Part shown: positions 10,986 through 33,371 of the stretch, piece by piece
Layout of the letters: each line of letters starts with the position of its first letter
Numbering within the stretch: position 1 is the stretch's first letter
Assembly: GCA_039621445.1 (NCBI GenBank)
Contig: CP154954.1
Location: 16,448,140-16,512,139, forward strand
From: Euglena gracilis
Lineage: Eukaryota
Direction: 5' to 3'
DNA length: 64,000 nt
Position numbers and translations under genes: made by a program
Notes under the pieces: model-generated
The model's database searches: none
The model's input: only the letters and a program-made list of their open reading frames with translations
What the model was told of the DNA's origin: nothing

Positions 10986-12954
10986 AACATACAAAACGCC
11001 AACAACGAAATTTTCGGCAAATTTGGTCAACATGACATTTTTGATAATGGTAGGTCTCAAGAAAATGACAAAAAATCAGTTTTTGGGTGGTTTGCAGCCG
11101 AAAAAATTGTCCCCGGTGGCTTTCAGTTCTCCTCCTGGGGGGGGGGGTATAACCCCTGGGCCTGGGGGGCGGGAGGGGTTCCCCTTCGGCGACCTCTTCT
11201 GTGAGTTGATTTTCGATGATGGGTCGAAAATTCGGGCTTTGTCCCAAAAAAAACTAATTGACTGCCATTGACTGCCATTGAAACCGATCGACATCTGCCA
11301 AACATGCTATCAATGACCAAGGAGGGGGTGCATCCCCCCCAAGCTGAGCGATGTAGACCATACGTGGACACCTTAAGTGTGTGGTTCATAACTGTGGGGG
11401 GGTTGCGCTTTGAGTTTGAGAATGGAGAATGAACTCATCCATCCATCCCTTCCTGGGCGCTTGGCACGGGCCACAAATGAAGGTATGGCCCCGAGGGCAA
11501 TTTGGGGGGAAAGTCGAATGTTAAAATTTTAGGCCATGACAAATAAGCCAAAAAAGCCTATTGGGGGGACAAGGTTGCACGGCCGAAGGCCAACTTTTGG
11601 GCCAAATTTGCGTGATTATGGGGGCCAAGAGTGTGGAGGGGATCCAAAGCTGTTGAAACTGACTGCAAAAAGCCACAGACACTCCAACAACAGCCCAAAT
11701 AGCTTTTTCAGCACCTTTGGCCTTTTCACTTTGGCACCTTTCGCAATCTTACATCATCGTCTTCAAAAAAGAACAAAGGCGGTCGTAAGTGGGCCGAGTA
11801 GACCAGCACACTGCTTGTGGGACCAGGAATTTTCTTTAAGAACGGGGGTGGTCTGGAACCCCCCCCCCGGGTCACCAAACTGAAAAAAAAATCTCTGGTC
11901 CAGACCAGTGGAGAGCAACCACAGGCGGCGAAGTGGTCTGGGGTAGGGCTGCAGATGTGGGAGGTCCAAGATGCTGAAATGGAGCTGAAAGCCTCCCAAA
12001 CATGAAATGGGTGTAGGGGACAGACTGCATGTCACTTATCCTTTATGCATTGTCGGTAAACAAGGCAATAATTGTCGAAATTATGCGGGGGGGGGAATGA
12101 TTCGGATTATGCGGCAATTATACGGATTTGTGCGGGTGAGAAATGCGGCAGAAAATCCTTTTGGCCACTGTTTGGTCGCTATACAGGATTATATGGGTGA
12201 GAAATGCGGCATAAAATCCTTTTGGCCATTGTTTGGTCACTTTTATTCAATTTTCGGAAACACTTTTTCAACTATTTTTTGTTGCTTCAGGCAAATTTTT
12301 GGTGACTTTTGACCCTCCGGTGCCTGCATCTCTGCTCCAGTTGCTGCATCCAGTAACCGCATCCCCGCACCTGCCGCAGTAGCCACATGGCCACATCTGT
12401 TACTAAATCTGCTGGAGTGTTTGAAAAATACTCTTAACATCTGTGCACGGCAGGAAATCTGCAACTTTAGCCTAAAGTGCTGGTCAAAAAAAAATCCCCA
12501 AAAACAGTGGCCCAGAAAGACCCAAAAATAAACTCCTGGTCCAATGCGTCCCATCGAAAAAAGCCAGCTGAACCTCCTAAAAAATTGACCTCCCCACAAA
12601 AAAAGAAATCCCTAGAGATAGAAAAAAATACAAAAAAAATAGACCTCGCCCGAGTCTGCATTTTTTTTTGGGTTTTTTGTTTAAAAAAAATTGGCAAGGA
12701 GCCTCATTTGCAGGAGGTCTGACTGGTTTGGGGGTGGCACTCTCACGGCTTTAGGAACAAAATTTGTCCCCTTCCCAGGACCCCGAAGTGCTGGTGTAAA
12801 CAGCAAATATTCAAAAAAGCACATCCAAAAATAAGATTAGATTTGAGCAACCAATCGAAACAGTGGACCTGGGTCTTATTTTGTGGGGGGGTTATTATTC
12901 TTATTTTGCCTTCCAATTCTTTTGCAGAATTCTGCACAATCCACATGTTTTAAA

Positions 12955-13351
12955 ACCCCCCTAATAAGTGCACGGGTGCGCGCATTTTAAGGACGTAGTT
13001 TCGGACCCCAAGGGGTGCGCACTTATTAGGGCAGTGCGCACTTTTTAGGGCAAAGCCAAAAATACTGACATTACCCCCACTCTTTTTCAGTTTTCCCCCC
13101 AACTTTGTGATTTCAAGCTATGAGTCAAGTGATTATGTGTCAAATGTGTCAAATTTGGGCTTGGACGATAGAAATATTTGGTCTGAGAAGGACAGTTCTG
13201 AGAATTGTGTGTGCTTTCCGACCTGAGATATGACAATGCTTTCTCCTTTGGGGGGTGCGCACTTTTTAGGGAGGTAGTTTCGGACCCTTGGGGGGTGCGC
13301 ACTTATTAGGGCACTGCGCACAATTAGGGCAGTGCGCACTTATTAGGGGGT
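12955..13351. mobile_element. MITE-like element with TIRs and subterminal gtgcgcactWWtaggg repeats
   Basis: Left acccccctaataagtgcac is the inverse of right gtgcgcacttattagggggt. There are about six internal gtgcgcac(t/a)..taggg units and a duplicated gtagtttcggacccc. Confidence 0.6.
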
Positions 13352-13693: not shown

Positions 13694-15119
13694 AAAATTA
13701 TTGCAAAAACTATGCAAATTATGTGGAATTATGGAGGATTATGCCTCCCACCCCCAACCCTGCCTTAATGCTTCAATTACCCCTCCGAAACACATCGCCT
13801 CAACCATGTCCCCCCCTCGGGGGCATAACCTCCCTTAAAAGAAGCACAGGGTCCTGCAAGCGCAGTGTCCACATAAAAATGCACCCCCCCCCACCGCCGG
13901 TCCACTACGAGCGCACCCGTTCTTCTATTTGTGGGTGGGTCAGGAATGGGACATCAATGCAAATTGCGGAGGACCCCGTGTGCAAGCACAATGCATTTTG
14001 TGAGGACGCTTTCTCCCGTTAGTCTCCTCCTGGCTAGTTCCAAACACACACAATTGATTGGATGAAACTGTCACACGACTGGATTGAATGTTCCTCCACG
14101 ATTGACGGCAAAGCTGGGGTTGCCAACTTTAGGGGACCAAATTGCATATTAAGAATTTCAGCAAGCCAGCACAAAATTCAAAATTGGCCAAGAACATTAA
14201 AGGGGGGGGGGCAAGATCGCAAGTTAAGGCTAAAGGGCAACGAGTTTGCATGGAAGGAGGAGGGGTGCCAAATGCCCAGGGGGGGGGCAAGCGAGGGGGG
14301 AGGTACCTGCACAGCAAATGCCTGGACCTTTCCACACAGATGGGCTGAAAAACAGCGGGTTATGCGCTTATGGGGAACTGGGGTGAGGTCGGTTCAGTTT
14401 CTTGGCACTTCCAACATCGGTTGTGCTTGTTGTGAGGGAAGTCGGTTCAGTGAACACCACAGAACACTCCCTGGCTGGCAAATCATTTTCCAATGACTGC
14501 CACCTTGCCAGCCCCAAACCGCATTGGCCCGCCGATCTAAGCATTGGAAAATATGAATCAGAGTGGTGTTGCCCGCACAAAGAGGAAGTACGAGTTGGAA
14601 AGATGGACCATAAAACGGAATGAGAAACCTCCCTTTTTCCCCTTCAAAAAGAAGAAATCAAAACCACAAAAACTCATTTGTTTTTGAAAAAAGACGATAT
14701 GTTTAATGGGACTTTGGTTTATTGCCGAGCTGTAAAAACACAAACTTAATTAACTTTGAAACCTTTGATGCGGTTTGATTGTTCCAGGAATGTCGCTTTG
14801 ACACGGGGGTGTGGGTGCAAAAGAATGGTAACAATAATGAAAACAGCAAATAACAGGGAAAGGGGTGAGTGTCAACAACATGGCGTGGACGGGATAAGGT
14901 GGAGAACTTCCAAAATTTCCACAACTGGGGATGAAACTCATGAACTGGGGTCCAGGGAGATTCAAGCTCAGTACAACCTTTATCAGGAAAGGTGGTTTCA
15001 AAAGCAGGAAGCCCCTAGCTCGCAAATAATTCCCCAGCTGGCGACCCCAGAACCCCAGAAGGGAGGGCGGATCCACAAAAAATTGCTCAACCACCCTGGC
15101 AGTTGGGGAGGGGGTCCAC

Positions 15120-15592
15120 CAGGGTTTGATACAAGGACAGGTGGGGGGGGGGGGGGCCGGGCCCCCCCCCTGCGGACCAGGAGAGGGGGGACACCCCCCC
15201 GGGGGTCGGTAAGCAATTGTATGGTCCGGACCCCCCCCCTGCGGACCAGGAGGGGGGGGACACCCCCCCACCTAAACAGTGGCGCGGTCCAGGTGATCGA
15301 ATTTCAGCCCTTCGCGAAGCGCCGGGCCGAAAATTTTTGATCCCCCAAAACGACCCAAAGTGCCATTTTGGGCACTTTTTGGGCAAAAATTTGCCAAAAA
15401 TGCAAAAAAAATTCGGCGCAAAATGCTGGAGGAAAAAATTGACCCTTTTTGGGGGGGGGTCCCGGGTACCCCCCCCCAGGGTCGGTCCGGACCCCCCTGG
15501 CAGGTGGGGGGGGGGGTCCGGACCCCCCCCTGCGGGGGGGGGGGGGCACCCCTCCACCTTAACCATGTACGCCCTCCTTGTATCAAATCCTG
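15120..15592. mobile_element. hAT-type MITE (473 bp)
   Basis: 18-bp TIRs cagggtttgatacaagga / tccttgtatcaaatcctg with 1 mismatch. Perfect 8-bp TSD GGGTCCAC at 15112-15119 and 15593-15600. Internal ggtccggacccc and cctgcggaccagg repeats. Confidence 0.93.
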
Positions 15593-16599
15593 GGGTCCAC
15601 CCTCCCACCAAACACAAACTCGGCTGGAAGTCTTTCAAAAAAGTTCCGGTCTGGCCTTCGGTCGGGACAGACTGGCCCATTGTGCACCTCCCCCGCCCCC
15701 ACCCCCCCTGGTTGTTTTGGTTCTTGAAAACCCATCTGTCCCCTGGAGGCAGGTGTGGGGTGAAATGCGGTGGCACTGCCAGTGGCACTGCGGGCCGTTA
15801 CACCACTTGTCTTTTTTTTCCCTTTTTAACTTGGCCTTGTTAAAGTTGGCCTGCGGCCACAACTTGCAACCTTGGCCCAAAAATTTTAATATTCTTCGCC
15901 AATTTGTGCACAGCCTACCGAAACTCTTACCGTGCATACTTGGCCATCCATTGTAGCCCCAGCAAGCGTTGCCACCCGGGGGGGCAACGCTTTGGTCTGA
16001 GGGGATAGCTGCCTCCGCTACTTTGTTGGGCCGGTGCTGCTGGTTCCCTCTTCAAGACGTTGACACAAAATTTGCCAAGATACTGCCGATATTTCTTTTC
16101 CCGAAAAACTCTCTGTTGACCATTGCAAAGTTGCACCCCAGTCCCTGTGTCAACAGAAAAACAGCCTGAATGGTTCGCCCCCATATGCCGGTAACGATTC
16201 GTCCAACGATCCATAAACCTCAAATCAAAATCAAATCAAAAAGACCTCAAATGGCCAAAAAAAAAGGTCAAAGCAGCAAACAAAACAGCCGAATATGGCC
16301 AAAATGGCTGAAAACGTCAAACAGTGGCCAAAAAATGCCGACATCGCCTTGCATTGCCCTGCATCCCCAAAATCAAGAACCTCACGGCCGGGAATGCACT
16401 TTTCTTGTTGAGTCACAAAATTTAGGCAGTTTTAGTGAAAATGCGCATCCGCGTATTTCGGAAGCGGAGTGCGCAGGTGCGCATTCTGAATGATTGCGTG
16501 CCTCTTCCAGACTGGGTGTAAACACCACAAAAATGAGCTGTTTGGATTAACACGACCATAGGGACCACCCCCTTGGATACTGCTTCAACTCCATATCAT

Positions 16600-17580
16600 G
16601 CTGTTTACAGCTGTTTCACAACGACTGTGGTACAGTGCGTGTGCGTGGATGGGCACACACTCAGCACACCACACGGCATGTGGAACACGAGCCACGCAGG
16701 CCAACCTGGACCTGGGTGTGCCACCTTGTGTTTATCAGTGTGTGCTGATGGCTTCCGGGGGCAGGGTCTAGTGAACCAGGGATGAGCCTGGGAAGGAACT
16801 CCTTGCGGCCACAGAGACACAGCCCTCCCAAGGTCAAAACAATGTAGGCGTCACTGAGTGTCAAGGCCGAAGAATGTGCACCTGCGTATTTTTTGGAAAC
16901 CCAAAAGAATGCGCAGGTGTGCATTTTTTTTGGAATGGACACAGGCTGTGGGAAGGGGGAATGCGCACATGTGAATTGATGTTGAAGGACACATTGGGTA
17001 TGGCCTGTTGTTTGCCTGCCTTGAATCCGAGCTGTGCACCGCTATGATGTGGTTTCGGGCTTGCAGAACAAGGGCATGTGAGGGGGAGATGAAAAAAAGA
17101 ATCACCCCTTGGCAACAACGTCGCTGTACCACACCACACCCTGAAACACGATACTTGCAGCGGTGTGGAAAAACCTGGGCTCGGCAACGGCAGGAGTCAA
17201 AGCACGAATTCATGTCCTTCAGTGACAGGGGAACTGCCCCCCTGCAGCTCAAGTCATATAACAAATCAGAATGCGCACCTGCGCATTCCATTTCACCCGC
17301 TGCAGTCCACTGCCCAGCCCAGCGTATGCTGCTCTCATGAATGTGTGGAGCACGTCACAACGCACGTGTAACCGTCCCCCACACGGCGGAGGCGATGGGC
17401 CGGTTGCTGCCGGCGTTGTCTGACCCCACGCCCCAGAGCGTGCATGGCAGCCAATGGTCGCCCTGAACAACCTTATGTTGGGCTGCAGTGCACGGTGCCA
17501 GGAGCACTGTGCCCCACAAGTAGGGTCAACGCAGGGGACTGTGTCTGGTTCCACACATACAGCACTCACTGGGTTGACAC
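16600..17580 (-). pseudogene. Degenerate CxC5-like cluster plus the N-terminal part of a KDZ-like transposase
   Basis: In order on the minus strand: VEPDTVPCVDPTCGAQC..NIRLFRATIGC (CxC5-like), then FPHRCKYRVSGCGVV/[frameshift]SDVVAK (compare HxCxxxGC..VxDGxxK), then HTDKHK..GWPAWLVFHMPCGVL (compare CxTxK..G..PCGII). The downstream catalytic motifs are absent. Confidence 0.45.
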
Positions 17581-18149
17581 CTCGAGAGCGAAACACGCCC
17601 ATCGCCACCTTCGGTATCTCTCAAAAACGGTCTGTAAACACAGAATTATTTCACAATCCAAATGTACTCAAAGAAGCGAACACCACTGGTCAGTCCTTGC
17701 CCCAAAATTTATCCAGGCCCTTGAGACTGTGAGCACATCATAAAAGCACAAGCACATCATAAAAAAAAACCTGGCGGTAAACCCAAGATTTTTTTCCGTT
17801 CTGCTTTTTCTGTGTATTCTACTGTGTCGCACCATGGGAAAACGGATGAGAAAGGGACTTCAGTGCCCGAGGAAATTTCTCAGTGACGGGCACCCTGATT
17901 CCCAACTGCGGTCAGCAGTCTTTCATGGCATGAGTAAAAAGCTGGTGAATGCGCACATGCGGAAAAAAGCGTCCTGTTCCTTTCTTCAAATGACAGCCAC
18001 ACTGCTGAATTTTGTACTCCCAGGTGGGAATGTCACCACCCACGCCAACTCCCCCCGCCGGTTCTGCAGTGTGAAGCCACGGGGCTGATGTGTAGACCTC
18101 CCTGCGCGGATCCAATGGTGTACGAGGACAAGGCAGCCCTGGAGCAAAA

Positions 18150-18352
18150 CTCGGCAAAGGAGGACCACCACCTGTGGCCTTGTTGGCAACAAACGTCACC
18201 CACCACACAGCACCCTTATTTATCATGTGCTCAGAGTCGACGCTCCAGCACTGAAAACAACACCACTGCTGGCCGCTGTGAAGACCAAGGAAATCACATA
18301 TATACACACACTTTCTCCACACACTCCGTCCGCAATGGCTGCAGTCAAACAT
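18150..18352 (-). pseudogene. Degenerate PHD-finger C-terminal half followed by a PWWP-like motif
   Basis: FDCSHCGRSVWRKCV...QQWCCFQC fits CxxCxxxx(H)xxC...WxCxxC with His replaced by Trp. It is followed by KGAVWWVTFVAN/[frameshift]GHRWWSS. Confidence 0.4.
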
Positions 18353-21187
18353 TGAACATTGGGGTGAATGCGCACATGCGCATTCCCTTTGTGTCTCCCC
18401 TTAAAGCACCCTGGTAGGAGATTGACACACAGGGCCATGCCAAACAACTCAGCACACAAGGTGGAGGCACAGCCCAGGAGACATACACCCTACTCTGGTG
18501 GCATCCACTTGTGCAATGAGATGCCTCTGAAATCGCTGACAAAAAAGGCCAGCAGTGCACCATGGGGGTTGCCCTGTCCCAATGCTGTCACTGGGTTCGG
18601 GAGTGCGAGGCACAGCTCCCCAACAACACAGAGAATGCGCACATGAGCACTCCCTCTCAAGAAATGCGCAGGTGCGCACTCTTGTGGATGCCCAGCGCTG
18701 CTCCCCTCCTGCTCATCTTCAGGTAGAACCACACCCAGCCAACGAAGGAATGGCCCCAAGAGTGCGCACGTGCACATTCTTGCGCCTCATGCAACCTCGA
18801 GACCTGTTTGTGAGGGTTGTTCTGGAGGTGCAGTCTGTGGCAAACAGGGTTGAAGTGGGGCTCCGCTCAGGAGCTTTAGGAACCAGTGAAGCACAGCAAA
18901 GGAGTGCCAGCCAGCCCCCCCCCCCCCCATACCCAGCACCCCATCCCAACCGTCAGACCTAAACTCAGGTGGCCCCACATGGTGATGTGCCATGGTGCCT
19001 ATGAGAAGGCGCATGCAGAGCAGACACCGTGCACGGCTGGATGGATGCTATGCCCGCATGTGTTTTGGAGGGGTGCAGTGCACCGTGTGGAATGCAAACC
19101 CCCTGAGGCAGGGCACCGAGCCCTCCTTTACAAACACCTGGCATGGGTTTAAATACACCGTCACCCACCACTCTCTGAAAGCATACTAACCACACACTAA
19201 CCACACACCAGCACCCTCTCGTGTCCTGCTTCCAACACAGGGCACAGAACCTCCCCTCCACTCTAACCATGAAGACCACGGTACCTCCTTCCCCTAACCA
19301 CCCCTGGGAGCCACAATAACCGTCCAAAATTTCAGGAAAAGGCCGGGGAGGGGGGTGAATGCGCACCTGCTCATTCACTGGGCACCACAAAACAGGGGGG
19401 ACAGCGGCAGGTACAACGTCTTCACCTGACCAGGGTTCGTCCTCGTGAAACAGCGTTTTGTGTCGCACCTACTTCGGCAGACGGGAGGTTTCCCCCAGTC
19501 GGCGGAGGTGCTAAATCATCAATTTCAAAACGAAAAAAGTTGGTTTACCCAGTAAAAAAACACGGGGGTCGAAAGTAATGGTACCCATTTTGGTACAAGG
19601 GGCTTCAGCTGACGGGTGCGCCGCCCCGTCAAGTGATGGCAACACAACTGGACACAAAAGAATGCGCAGGTGCGCAAAAAACCACCAAAAATGAAAAGTG
19701 CATTCCCAGCCGTCTAAGTTAGACTCCACAATTACTGCATCGCCCTGCACCAGCGAAGGTGGTTGCCCCCCCCCCCCAGGCGCCCTGGACCCGATTGAAC
19801 GTTAGGCCAGGGTACCAACCATGCGTAAAACAAGCCAAAACGCCCTAAAATTGGGCGCAAAGTTGCAAATTAAGGCTGAAGTTTAGGAAGGTCAAGTTTG
19901 CATGTAAGGAGGAGGGGGGGGGCAAGCGCCTGGGGGGGGGAAGCGCCTGGGGGGGGTACCAACACCCAAGGATTTCCAGCCAAGCCACGCAAGGAACCTG
20001 TGGGGCGGGCGATCGAGTCTTGGCCCGCAGACGCGAGAGCCAAAGCTATTACACACGCAACGCAGAGGACAAGCGACACGTGACTCGCAGAGCTTGCAGA
20101 GCTTCCGAGCTATAGAGGGTGGAAGCGTTATAGCTCCCAAGGAGCTATAAAAACAAGAGCGCGAAAAATTGGGGCCCTTGATTCATCAGATGGGAACGCC
20201 AACAGAATGGTCCCGGGGCTTGGCCTGCGCCTGCAACTGCCGGGCACTGCAGAACACAAGCCACAAATGTCACCGTGGGGGAAAGGAAGGGTAAAAAATG
20301 AGCGGGGACAGGGGGGTAGGACCCCTTGGAGGGTGTGTGAGTTGGACCACCCCTCCCTCTGTGCAAAAAATTCTTAAAGCTCTTTGCACCGGAAAAAAAA
20401 CCGGGCCTTGAAAAAGGCCCCAAAAAGCGCACTTTTGAAAAAAATTGGTCAAAACCTACGGCGAAAATTTCATTTTCCCGGCGAGAAGCGCCGGAAAATT
20501 GTTTTTGGTTCCTGGTGAGGGATTTTAGAATGATCCTGCACTTGTGCAGGATCATTGGAGATTTTGAACAAAATTAATTTTTTTGCCTGCCCCACTAGAT
20601 AGTTCCTGTAGGACGTCCCACTAATTACTACCCCCACTTAAGGAAGCACATTTCACAGTGATTCCGAAAATGCACCCGAATTTTTTGGTTATCCCAACCC
20701 AACCCAATCCCCCCCCCGCCCCCCCCCCCCCCCCCCCACTAGCCCAGGGACCTCGAGGAGAATCGAGCCTGGGGATGGCGTTGCTTGCAGGCTGTTGTCC
20801 TTTTGAAAACACCGTTGGATTGCTTCGGCACTGAAGGTTGCTTGACTGGAGGGGATATCTGCTAGTTGAGACACCCACCCAATTGCTTTGAAGAAAATGT
20901 GCCGGATGCACAATACCCCCCCCCCCCGGCGTTTGGCCACCCTCCTCCTCACATGCAAACTTGGCCCCTGTAGGGATGGCCTTTTGCACATGGCCGCCAA
21001 AATTCTTCACATGCAAACTTGGCCCCCCTAATGTTGGCCCCCTGGCCTTACCTTCATGGCCTGGGCCAAGCGCCCGGGTGGGACAGCAAGAAGAAAATTT
21101 GGCTAGACTGACCGATGGTCCTGTCAGCCATTTCATGCAAAGTCTGTGTTGATGTGGTCTCGATGCTGCCAAGGCCGCAAAAAGCAT

Positions 21188-21481: not shown

Positions 21482-21888
21482 CTTCCAAAAAACCCCCCGG
21501 TTTTACGTTTTCCTTGGCGAAATAGGTGATTCATCTTGGACTTTGGCTCCTTGTGCCTCTTTTAATCTAAATATTCAGGTTAATGGGGAAAGAATTGTTT
21601 ATCCATGGGGAAAAAAATTGTTTATCTACCCCCAATAAACAACTTGCTGACAATATGGCAAATCCAAAAATGGAGGACAAATCTCTATGACGACCCACAA
21701 GACGGTTCCTAGAGGCTGAAATTCGATTGCTGCCCCCCCCCCCCGAGTCCAAAGAACACCAAAATGGCTAACATGTCGGTCCCAGGATGCAATATGTCGC
21801 TTTGCATGTGTCTTCTCGGCCCAGTGCACTGAAATATGCACCTCTCACTTTCCATCACTCCACCAAACTGAAAAAGGTGACAACAGGG

Positions 21889-22008
<120 letters not shown>

Positions 22009-23259: not shown

Positions 23260-23630
23260 AGGGCCTCTTTCGGCCATTTTTCGATTGCTTTTGGCCACTA
23301 TTAGCGCTTTGGCCACTTTTGGTCCATTTTTTTGGCCACTTTTTGCTTTGGCCACTTTTATCCCATTTTGGCCATTTTAGGGACAAATATGTAGATCCAT
23401 TTTATGGATCAACCATAAGCAGCCAAAAGTAGCCAAAATCTGCCCAAAATGGCCAAAAGGCACCCAAAGGGCCAAATATATATAAAATCAGCCAAAAAAA
23501 ACGGCCAAAAATGCCCCCCAAAATGCCCCCAAAAATGGCCAAAAAAAAAAAATGGGCCAAAAAAAAAAGGACGACAAAGGCCAAAAATAGCCAAAAATGG
23601 ACAAAAACGGCCAAAAGTGGCGAAAATGGC
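23260..23630. repeat. Fold-back array of ttttggcca (left arm) and tggccaaaa (right arm) motifs
   Basis: Motif polarity switches at the central hairpin gatccattttatggatc (~23394-23410). Confidence 0.7.
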
Positions 23631-23997: not shown

Positions 23998-23999
23998 CA

Positions 24000-24087
<88 letters not shown>

Positions 24088-24088
24088 C
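23998..24088. repeat. (GCAC)n microsatellite
   Basis: Directly visible. Confidence 0.97.
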
Positions 24089-24448
24089 TAATACACACCA
24101 GCTCAGGGAGCAACCTGCAGTGTGCACATGCTGCTTGTCCGGGCTGCACAGGTGTCCGCTGCCCCAATCCTGCGCATTATCCATTATTTCTCAAATTATG
24201 GGCTATTTATACACTGATTTGTTTATTTGAAATATACTGGTAATTTTTATTCAGCTTGAGTTCTCTTATGTGAAAAAAAGAGCAGATATGGAAGCATAAA
24301 CACCTGAATAGCCAAGCCTGCACTTAAGGGCCCCCAGAGGGTGGGTCGAACTGAATTGGCACTAGCTGGCTCGCTGGAAACAAAAATACTTCAGAGTCGC
24401 AGCAGGCTGCAAAAAAAATTGTTCCCGGTGGTCGCAATGAAAAAAAAA

Positions 24449-32187: not shown

Positions 32188-33371
32188 CAGGTTGCCAACA
32201 CAAAAAACATACCCCCCCTGACAGCACAAAAAACATACCCCCCATCTGGTGAGTAAAGCTATAAGCAGCAATGCGGCCAATCAAGCGCTGGATTTGCCGC
32301 GAATGCAACCGTCATGCAAAAGGGCGGGATATGGGAAGGTCAGTAGCGGGTGTGTGACAGCCGGCATGCAGTTAGGCATGCTGTCATAAAATGCTTTGAC
32401 CTGTTCGGGGGAGATTTCTGCGAAGGCAGCTTGCAAAGCCAACCACAACTGGTCTTTGCCCGCAAACGCATGCCCACGCAACTTGTGCAGCACCATGGGC
32501 CACAAATGTTCAATGGGGTTAAGGTCTGGCGACTGTGGTGGCCAAACCCCTCCGTTGAAGCGCAGCACTCGCTTCCACCTCATCCACGCTGTGGTACTCC
32601 GCGCACGGTGGGGAGAAGCCCCGTCCTGCTGGAAGCGGTAGCCCGCAGTCCTGCACAATGGATTGTGAATATGTCGAATATTGGCGTGCAAACACCAGGC
32701 GTTTCCGCTTGTTCACCGAGGACAGTAATGGCTTCCTTGCTGCGGTTTGGCAGCACAAGCCCGCCTTCCGTAGGATTGTACGGATGAATTCTGGAGATGG
32801 TTTTGGCGGTATCTGAAATTCACACAAAAAAAGCATATGCATAACGATTGACAAACACGCCTTAACCACTGCCCCTGCTGGGCGGGCTAACAATGCGGTG
32901 CTAACTCGGAGGAAATGCTCGTCGGCGATTTGTTTGCAATTCCAAAAAGGGTTTTTCATTGCCATTTTTAATATACCTCTTCGAAACCTGTGGGAATTTC
33001 GGAATGGAATATAATTTATTGCAAACGTCGCACACCGTGCTGAATATTTCTTTGCCTTTTGCTGATTGGATCCCGATCCAACTTTGCGATCAAGCGTGCA
33101 ACGTTCTTTGAATCTGGATGCCATACCTGGGATAAGTGGCTGGTGTGTACAAGCTGGGTATATACCTTGCACTGTAGCTTTGGATATTTTCTCGTGATTT
33201 TGCAATCTTATTGAGCGACCAGGGTGGAACAAAAGAGAGATACGTCTCCACGCGCTTGCGCAAAACCGCTCTGTCGGCAGTGCTCATTTTTGGGGGCATG
33301 AGAGCAACTGGGGACAAAATGGAATGCGGAATTTGCTTTTTGGGGGGTATGTTTTTTGTGTTGGCAACCTG
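32188..33371 (-). mobile_element. Tc1/mariner (IS630-Tc1-mariner) transposon, internally deleted, 1184 bp
   Basis: Perfect 30-bp TIRs caggttgccaacacaaaaaacatacccccc (32188-32217) and its inverse (33342-33371). TA on both sides (32186-32187 and 33372-33373). Inner direct repeat cacaaaaaacataccccc at ~32225. Transposase motifs inside. Confidence 0.97.
32281..33299 (-). pseudogene. Tc1-like transposase pseudogene (D37E), three candidate introns
   Basis: Reconstructed as MPPKMST..., HTH region ISKATVQG|MASRFKERCTLDRKVGSG, ARKPLLSSVNKRKRLVFARQY, and FQQDGASPH...WPPQSPDLNPIEHLW. There is a +1 frameshift in the A-run near 33200. The first catalytic Asp region is missing at a junction near 32650-32670. 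Candidate introns: 33127-33165, 32988-33035 and 32813-32860. Confidence 0.92.

Follow-up and report, generated by a model that had tools for sequence, protein, structure and literature searches.

The window analysed here is a 64,000-nucleotide stretch of Euglena gracilis DNA (GCA_039621445.1, contig CP154954.1, forward-strand positions 16,448,140 to 16,512,139), and all positions below are those of the window. Here an intron of an expressed host locus encloses a transposable element that carries thirteen copies of one short palindrome (Table 1). A first-pass annotation, made from the letters alone, had noticed these copies and offered protein binding, splicing or DNA modification as their role. 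We delimited the element, characterized the palindromes and their fate in related copies, and weighed these and further explanations.

A mobile, gene-less element with thirteen private palindromes

Reads and contigs of four public runs were mapped on positions 15800-20300 at a likeness of at least 90%. The element is bounded by a 27-bp terminal inverted repeat (16384-16410 against 19686-19713, with 25 of 28 bases complementary), and at the edges of this repeat the depth of X1 DNA contigs rose to 100-1000 times that of the flanks. Summed contig depth, which is not a copy number, was 65,000-410,000 in every bin inside the element compared with 303-659 in the left flank (bins 15800-16252) and 685 in the right flank (19726-19876). 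Altogether 11,236 X1 contigs mapped, 1,952 of them at 99% or more, 3,593 at 95-99% and 5,691 at 90-95%. The site without the element was recovered in one contig of X1, of depth 204 and with 34 letters on the shorter side, in which one C separates 16385 from 19719 (...CTCAC-C-TTAGAC...). The element is mobile and very abundant.

RNA reads of other copies overran position 16384 and their loose ends finished in TCTTAG (4 reads in X21, 9 in X24); the left end of the family is therefore CTTAGACGGC..., the mirror of ...GCCGTCTAAG on the right. The loose ends thus add to the family left end a CTTAG that mirrors CTAAG at 19714-19718, and the left end deduced in this way is matched by the reverse complement of the right repeat, CTTAGACGGCTGGGAATGCAC.... 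The copy in the window has lost these five terminal bases, and probably its left target duplication as well. Having terminal inverted repeats, many dispersed copies, both filled and empty sites and no transposase of its own, the element is a non-autonomous class II (cut-and-paste) DNA transposon of the terminal-inverted-repeat kind. Membership of CACTA (En/Spm) was rejected, as the ends are not CACTA.

Searches for a gene gave negative results throughout. Pfam had no match among open reading frames (ORFs) of at least 90 aa in 13-23 kb, none at E<=1 among 66 ORFs of at least 40 aa in 15957-19719, and none on the six read-through frames of the element (X at stops). When 116 ORFs of at least 90 aa from the window outside the repeat array at 36.4-61.9 kb were taken, Pfam matched solely a Tc1/mariner remnant at 32-33 kb and, below threshold, INCA1. 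Neither the element nor 13-23 kb contained an ORF with any family match, or a gene for a ParB-like protein of the PAG3 type (see below). The frame -1 read-through found nothing in a PDB sequence search and no homologue of 611-1945 aa, and Rfam gave 0 matches in the window at gathering thresholds. Stop codons numbered 23-37 per frame, with frame -1 the most open (23), against 44 expected from composition; since every frame has this shortage of stops, the presence of four ORFs of about 160 aa does not speak for coding. Frame -1 was rejected as a real ORF on the same ground, and because positives barely exceed identities in its relatives. The coding remnants of the first-pass annotation, and with them its idea of a lattice overlaid on a gene, thus found no backing, the six frames being devoid of any family match. 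Since the element is mobile and abundant yet gene-less, whatever acts on it acts in trans.

A search of the 64-kb window for AATGCGCANNTGCGCATT at up to 3 mismatches recovered 13 sites, all within 16440-19678 and at the same starts as annotated before, whereas dinucleotide-preserving shuffles averaged 0.18 and reached 2 at most. Two sites (17270, 18367) were exact. Described at first as 18 bp long, the palindrome is real, but its full unit is a 20-bp dyad, GAATGCGCA-NN-TGCGCATTC; the 13 sites span 16439-19679, and the dyad does not occur in the other 60 kb of the window. That the copies are confined to one element, and spread through it instead of being subterminal, was confirmed by the edges determined above and by the distribution of sites over the whole 3.3 kb. 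With the 20-mer GAATGCGCANNTGCGCATTC, 13 sites were found at 0-4 mismatches, 0 at 5 and 4 at 6, against Markov control expectations of 0.4, 1.9 and 12, and the palindromes therefore form a discrete set. The half-word AATGCGCA occurred 10 times in 64 kb, every time inside one of the 13 sites. When metagenome contigs were scanned by exact word, 38 loci came up, amounting to 285 kb with flanks; each had 1-2 sites and none a palindrome cluster.

In a self-comparison of the element nothing was repeated except the palindromes and three pairs of them, and thus the sites were not born by tandem duplication. The pairs (16440/16468, 16873/16908 and 18634/18663), already recognized in the first pass, form composite palindromes of 46, 59 and 51 bp. 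The dyad centres are CC (three sites), GG (four), CA (four), CG (one) and TC (one); the CAG|GT that had been read across the centre is present in 4 sites and lacking in 9. Every site includes two GCGC words and 2-3 CpG. Two simple origins were ruled out: a tiny 20-bp mobile unit, since the sites are without flanking duplicated bases, and a junction of the two ends of the element, in a circle or end to end, since these ends read CTTAGACGG, unlike the dyad.

The dyad is polar, its left half being much better kept than its right. Over the 13 sites, the left nine positions matched the consensus in 112 of 117 cases and the right nine in 95 of 117 (Fisher p = 0.0008), which corresponds to 5 and 22 mismatches, respectively (binomial p = 0.0015). 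The halves, noted as complementary in the first pass, are thus unequally preserved, a pattern that symmetric neutral decay of a perfect palindrome would not give. The half-sites are 9 bp long, separated by a free 2-bp centre, and their centres lie 11 bp apart, a geometry that fits dimeric helix-turn-helix operators. A half-site-like word, GGGAATGCAC, is present in both terminal repeats. When 19 mismatches were examined for pairing, there were 0 compensatory double changes, 7 led to G-T pairs and 12 broke the pair; thus, the sequence is kept and not the pairing. Family-majority letters restored the consensus at 16454, 16887 and 17962, where this copy has lost it, and an outer GCATT arm at 16974, which places the master element nearer to the ideal palindrome. 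Single sites reached folding energies of -8.7 and -9.4 kcal/mol (z about -5); the three pairs folded as long hairpins of 46-59 nt (z of -2.9, -8.3 and -3.7 for pairs 1, 2 and 3).

Table 1. Positions of the host intron, the element, its terminal repeats and the thirteen palindromes in the window; mismatches are counted against the 20-mer.
Feature	Position	Strand	Remarks
Host intron	14874..19992	.	Encloses the element; non-GT-AG ends (AA..AA on + strand); from RNA loose end
Mobile element	16386..19718	+	3,333 bp, gene-less, high-copy family; from empty-site contig, depth step, inverted repeat
Left terminal inverted repeat	16384..16410	+	ACGGCCGGGAATGCACTTTTC-TTGTTG; this copy without the family's outermost CTTAG
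Right terminal inverted repeat	19686..19718	-	Ends ...GCCGTCTAAG (19709-19718); from complementarity to left repeat
Palindrome 1	16439..16458	+	4 mismatches; first of pair 1
Palindrome 2	16467..16486	+	1 mismatch; second of pair 1
Palindrome 3	16872..16891	+	3 mismatches; first of pair 2
Palindrome 4	16907..16926	+	2 mismatches; second of pair 2
Palindrome 5	16959..16978	+	3 mismatches; kept in relative P0007
Palindrome 6	17269..17288	+	Perfect
Palindrome 7	17947..17966	+	4 mismatches; kept in P0009 and P0011; present beside gap in P0008
Palindrome 8	18366..18385	+	Perfect
Palindrome 9	18633..18652	+	2 mismatches; first of pair 3; kept in P0016
Palindrome 10	18662..18681	+	2 mismatches; second of pair 3; kept in P0016
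Palindrome 11	18760..18779	+	2 mismatches
Palindrome 12	19357..19376	+	1 mismatch; kept in P0010, absent in P0013
Palindrome 13	19660..19679	+	3 mismatches

Relatives, length variants and transcripts of the family

An exhaustive protein search with the frame -1 translation (E<=0.001) yielded 11 short predicted proteins of 95-202 aa as relatives, none of which had a Pfam match above noise. In these, positives barely exceed identities (for P0007, 115 identities and 121 positives in 200 columns), and for this reason they are read as translated element copies; their behaviour in the alignments is that of diverged copies and does not suggest a conserved protein. P0008, one of the eleven, carries the source label of a Euglena gracilis transcript. 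At 32-57% translated identity, 6 of 13 site-by-hit comparisons showed a recognizable site at the homologous position; one further case was partial (3/7), three were poorly kept and three were fully gapped. P0016, only 32% identical overall, matched in 11 of 14 residues across pair 3, and P0009 appears to have a GAATGCAC-type variant at site 7, according to back-reading of its translation. By reading of the translated alignments, the relatives also tend to retain the same left half of the dyad.

Length differences between copies were studied in the best-supported 15 of 107 joints and in 12 of the 51 rows of a further table. At least four DNA-contig joints had both ends at palindromes (16486->19683, 17287->18657, 17289->18656 and 17288->18674), and in a fifth, 16423->17272, one of the two ends lay in a palindrome. 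The stretch missing from P0007 is precisely the 87 bp between the sites at 16873 and 16960. In the relatives, 26 of 91 palindrome columns were gapped versus 91 of 1139 elsewhere, the columns not being independent. These data are suggestive of palindromes as frequent end points of deletions between family copies, and palindrome-to-palindrome deletions of this type would show how such elements shrink to miniature forms.

The host locus is expressed. At a sampling of about 5%, the exon at 19993-20205 was covered by RNA to a depth of 10-18; in DNA depth it was level with the single-copy flanks. The loose end of RNA reads before 19993 (22 reads in X21, 10 in X24) was exactly window 14844-14873, and therefore the RNA joins 14873 to 19993 across the intron listed in Table 1. 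The intron ends are shared with neither the element ends nor the palindromes; an introner or transposon-derived non-conventional intron was rejected because of this lack of coincidence. A start near 20758 (3 mismatches) is probable for the next exon. In the RNA runs as well as in the DNA run, position 20090 was A, which is therefore a strain or allele difference. A short dispersed repeat lies just upstream of both exon-bearing stretches (14207-14307 and 19853-19960, 72% identity in direct orientation) and has an inverted counterpart (19890-19940 and 20918-20966, 84%).

Within the element RNA depth was 0-6, mostly from reads 90-95% alike, which therefore came from other copies. In X24, element reads ran about 10:1 in one direction (48.7 versus 4.9 in summed bin depths), and the exon reads likewise; X21 is unstranded. 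Transcription of the family would be from one strand if other data bear out the X24 bias. All of the best-supported 15 of 107 joints were DNA-contig joints, with support from 0 reads in X21 and X24 and 0 contigs in X15. RNA junctions at palindrome centres were absent, which at this low coverage is weak evidence. A Euglena spliced-leader motif had no match in the window, a result that says nothing either way.

Possible docking sites and competing explanations

The anatomy of the palindromes favours sequence recognition by a dimeric protein over recognition of a structure, because 9-bp half-sites stand 11 bp apart, one sequence is used at all 13 sites, compensatory changes are lacking and GGGAATGCAC recurs in the terminal repeats. 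The reading that we consider most likely, at about even odds, is that the 13 palindromes are cis docking sites, kept by this non-autonomous derivative, for a dimeric DNA-binding protein that the family encodes. The protein would be supplied in trans by an autonomous relative, and either the transposase itself or an accessory factor, for instance one of ParB fold, could fill this role. Each dyad would be bound by a dimer, with GAATGCGCA as the high-affinity half-site and a weaker partner one helical turn away, and the half-site-like word in both terminal repeats might be bound too. A protein coat along the whole element would then mark it as self, and this marking could serve end pairing, mobilization or protection from silencing. 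Among the three options of the first-pass annotation, the protein-binding lattice is thus the best supported, with anatomy as its support.

Several observations weigh against docking sites. Transposase-binding repeats usually lie near the ends, and a spread over the whole element is unusual for them. No binding protein was identified; there is neither an element ORF with a family match nor an adjacent ParB-like gene or transposase. The resemblance between terminal repeats and half-site extends over 8-10 bases and could be due to chance. As to positional conservation, a check proposed in the first pass, sites were kept in six of the 13 comparisons, but palindrome columns overall were not better conserved than others (36 of 91 identical versus 528 of 1139; Fisher p = 0.23 for 11 relatives, in a crude, frame-sensitive test at the amino-acid level), which speaks against selective constraint, and the poorly kept and fully gapped cases made up 3 of 13 each.

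The palindromes might instead be recombination or deletion hot spots without function, in which a short, repeated, hairpin-prone sequence spreads and persists passively and template switching or slippage generates length variants. The joints between palindromes, the 87-bp deletion in P0007, the excess of gap columns and the unexceptional conservation of palindrome columns all agree with this idea. It leaves unexplained, however, how 13 copies of one 20-mer arose in otherwise unique sequence, why the left half is better kept and why the family majority is nearer to the ideal palindrome; moreover, a deletion hot spot is compatible with a binding site, and we consider the passive explanation rather unlikely. 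Hairpins or cruciforms could also act on single-stranded DNA or in the element RNA, for instance as processing signals or, through a strand-specific transcript, as precursors of small RNAs. Folding energies of single sites and pairs, the one-directional X24 reads, to which a polar dyad would be suited, and the presence of a deletion derivative in a Euglena gracilis transcriptome transcript (P0008) speak for such a role. Against it, none of the 19 mismatches was compensatory and 12 break the stem, many right halves are too degraded to fold, one sequence at all sites points to sequence recognition, and element RNA is very scarce. A role of the folded structure therefore appears improbable to us.

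If the sites were targets of DNA modification, a family or host enzyme would add or remove marks to control silencing, which overlaps with docking sites in case the binder is itself the modifier, a combination proposed for PAG3. The element has a lower CpG observed/expected ratio than the window (0.54 versus 0.70), and 20 of 26 core CpGs of the sites are retained, counted from the site alignment. PAG3 of red-algal transposons reportedly combines a ParB-like domain with a putative 2OG oxygenase (bioRxiv 10.1101/2025.02.11.637652), and VANC causes methylation loss on its own transposon family (PMC5735166). On the other hand, the element neither contains nor adjoins an enzyme gene, and we rate modification as quite improbable. 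Splicing at the CAG|GT centre, with the palindromes as self-complementary intron ends or as introner-like cassettes, had been the remaining option of the first pass. Four centres do read CAG|GT, but nine do not, neither X21 or X24 reads nor X15 contigs supported any of the best 15 of 107 joints, and the intron defined by RNA ends outside both element and palindromes; at a low RNA depth, this explanation is largely refuted and has a very slight chance of being right. The sites may also be a cluster of host transcription-factor sites, against which stands their absence from the other 60 kb.

Docking sites would place the element among systems of a known kind, transposons with family-private binding motifs. 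Its distinctive features are the polarity of the dyad, the spread over the whole element and the retention of the sites by an abundant gene-less derivative. A parallel is found in red algae, where Plavaka, Zisupton and Mutator-like transposons have PAG3 with adjacent inverted-repeat arrays (bioRxiv 10.1101/2025.02.11.637652). Like these ParB/PAG3-associated transposons, ours has multiple inverted-repeat units private to the element, which in that work are proposed targets of the transposon's own accessory protein. There, tandem arrays lie beside the PAG3 gene, whereas here single sites and pairs are dispersed over an element without genes; the host lineage differs, and binding is a proposal in both.

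In Arabidopsis, VANC proteins of the Mutator-like VANDAL transposons are bound to motifs in non-coding parts (PMC5735166). The same source describes shifts in motif number by repeat formation and non-autonomous copies targetable in trans (PMC5735166). Both families thus have specific short motifs in non-coding parts, bound in VANDAL by a protein that the element encodes. Unlike VANDAL, our element has no VANC homologue, and it shares neither terminal repeats nor host with that family. The motifs of VANC are not known to be dyads, and many occur as tandem repeats. In En/Spm (CACTA), Ac/Ds and similar plant elements, subterminal repeats bind the transposase or TnpA, some of them as head-to-head pairs, and are retained by non-autonomous derivatives. 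Our element resembles them in having several short motifs, some head-to-head, inside a terminal-inverted-repeat element; there, however, the motifs lie within a few hundred bases of the ends, whereas here they occupy the whole 3.3 kb, and the ends here start with CTTAG and not with the CACTA of En/Spm. By analogy only, the dyads may also be likened to bacterial parS, the site of ParB, as both are dyad-symmetric sites of 16-20 bp in several copies; parS belongs to a prokaryotic segregation system, and no ParA or ParB is present here.

A more specific form of the docking reading, which we think unlikely, is that a family-encoded ParB-fold protein loads at the polar, family-private dyads all along the element and coats it, in a parS/ParB-like self-recognition of euglenid DNA transposons. 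The gene-less derivative, a parasite on this system, would then have become very high-copy by keeping loading sites and ends, and polarity would set the direction of loading or strand-specific transcription.

About one third of the Euglena gracilis genome consists of unclassified repeats (PMC11252322). The family described here is a concrete, bounded example of unusual anatomy, in which nothing is repeated but one polar 20-bp dyad, arranged as a lattice. Should the dyads be docking sites for a protein of an autonomous relative, they would provide a direct way to find that protein and to test how a eukaryotic transposon recognizes its own copies, a recognition that could serve mobilization or escape from silencing. 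The question of self-recognition now rests on VANDAL/VANC in plants and on the red-algal proposal.

Other repeats in the window

A second private palindrome cluster is located at 12958-13345, in which (A/G)GTGCGCAC(T) occurs about seven times, with TTATTAGGG-like words after each copy. It includes two direct repeats of about 80 bp that flank about 190 bp, and the core TGCGCA is common to this cluster and the main dyad. At 23280-23620, and also at 16240-16340, 12160-12221 and 2145-2728, TTTGGCCA(CT) arrays are followed by the inverted word (T)GGCCAAAA in a foldback-like arrangement (7 and about 12 copies); a fragment bearing this word adjoins the left end of the main element. Two inverted (ACGC)n-type arrays (21886-21987 and 23998-24099; 102 nt, 94% complementary) bracket about 2 kb that include TGGCCAAAA arrays, and together these may be one larger foldback element.

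The Tc1/mariner remnant, a decayed transposase at 32284-33283 on the minus strand, matched HTH_Tnp_Tc3_2 (E = 4e-11) and a DDE_3 fragment just under the cut-off (E = 2e-6). Positions 36400-61900 are taken up by a large complex tandem array, in which 12 unit copies, many of them 89-100% identical, are spaced 1.0-3.1 kb apart and contain sub-repeats rich in TTTTGGCTCAAAAACA-like words and in G or C runs.

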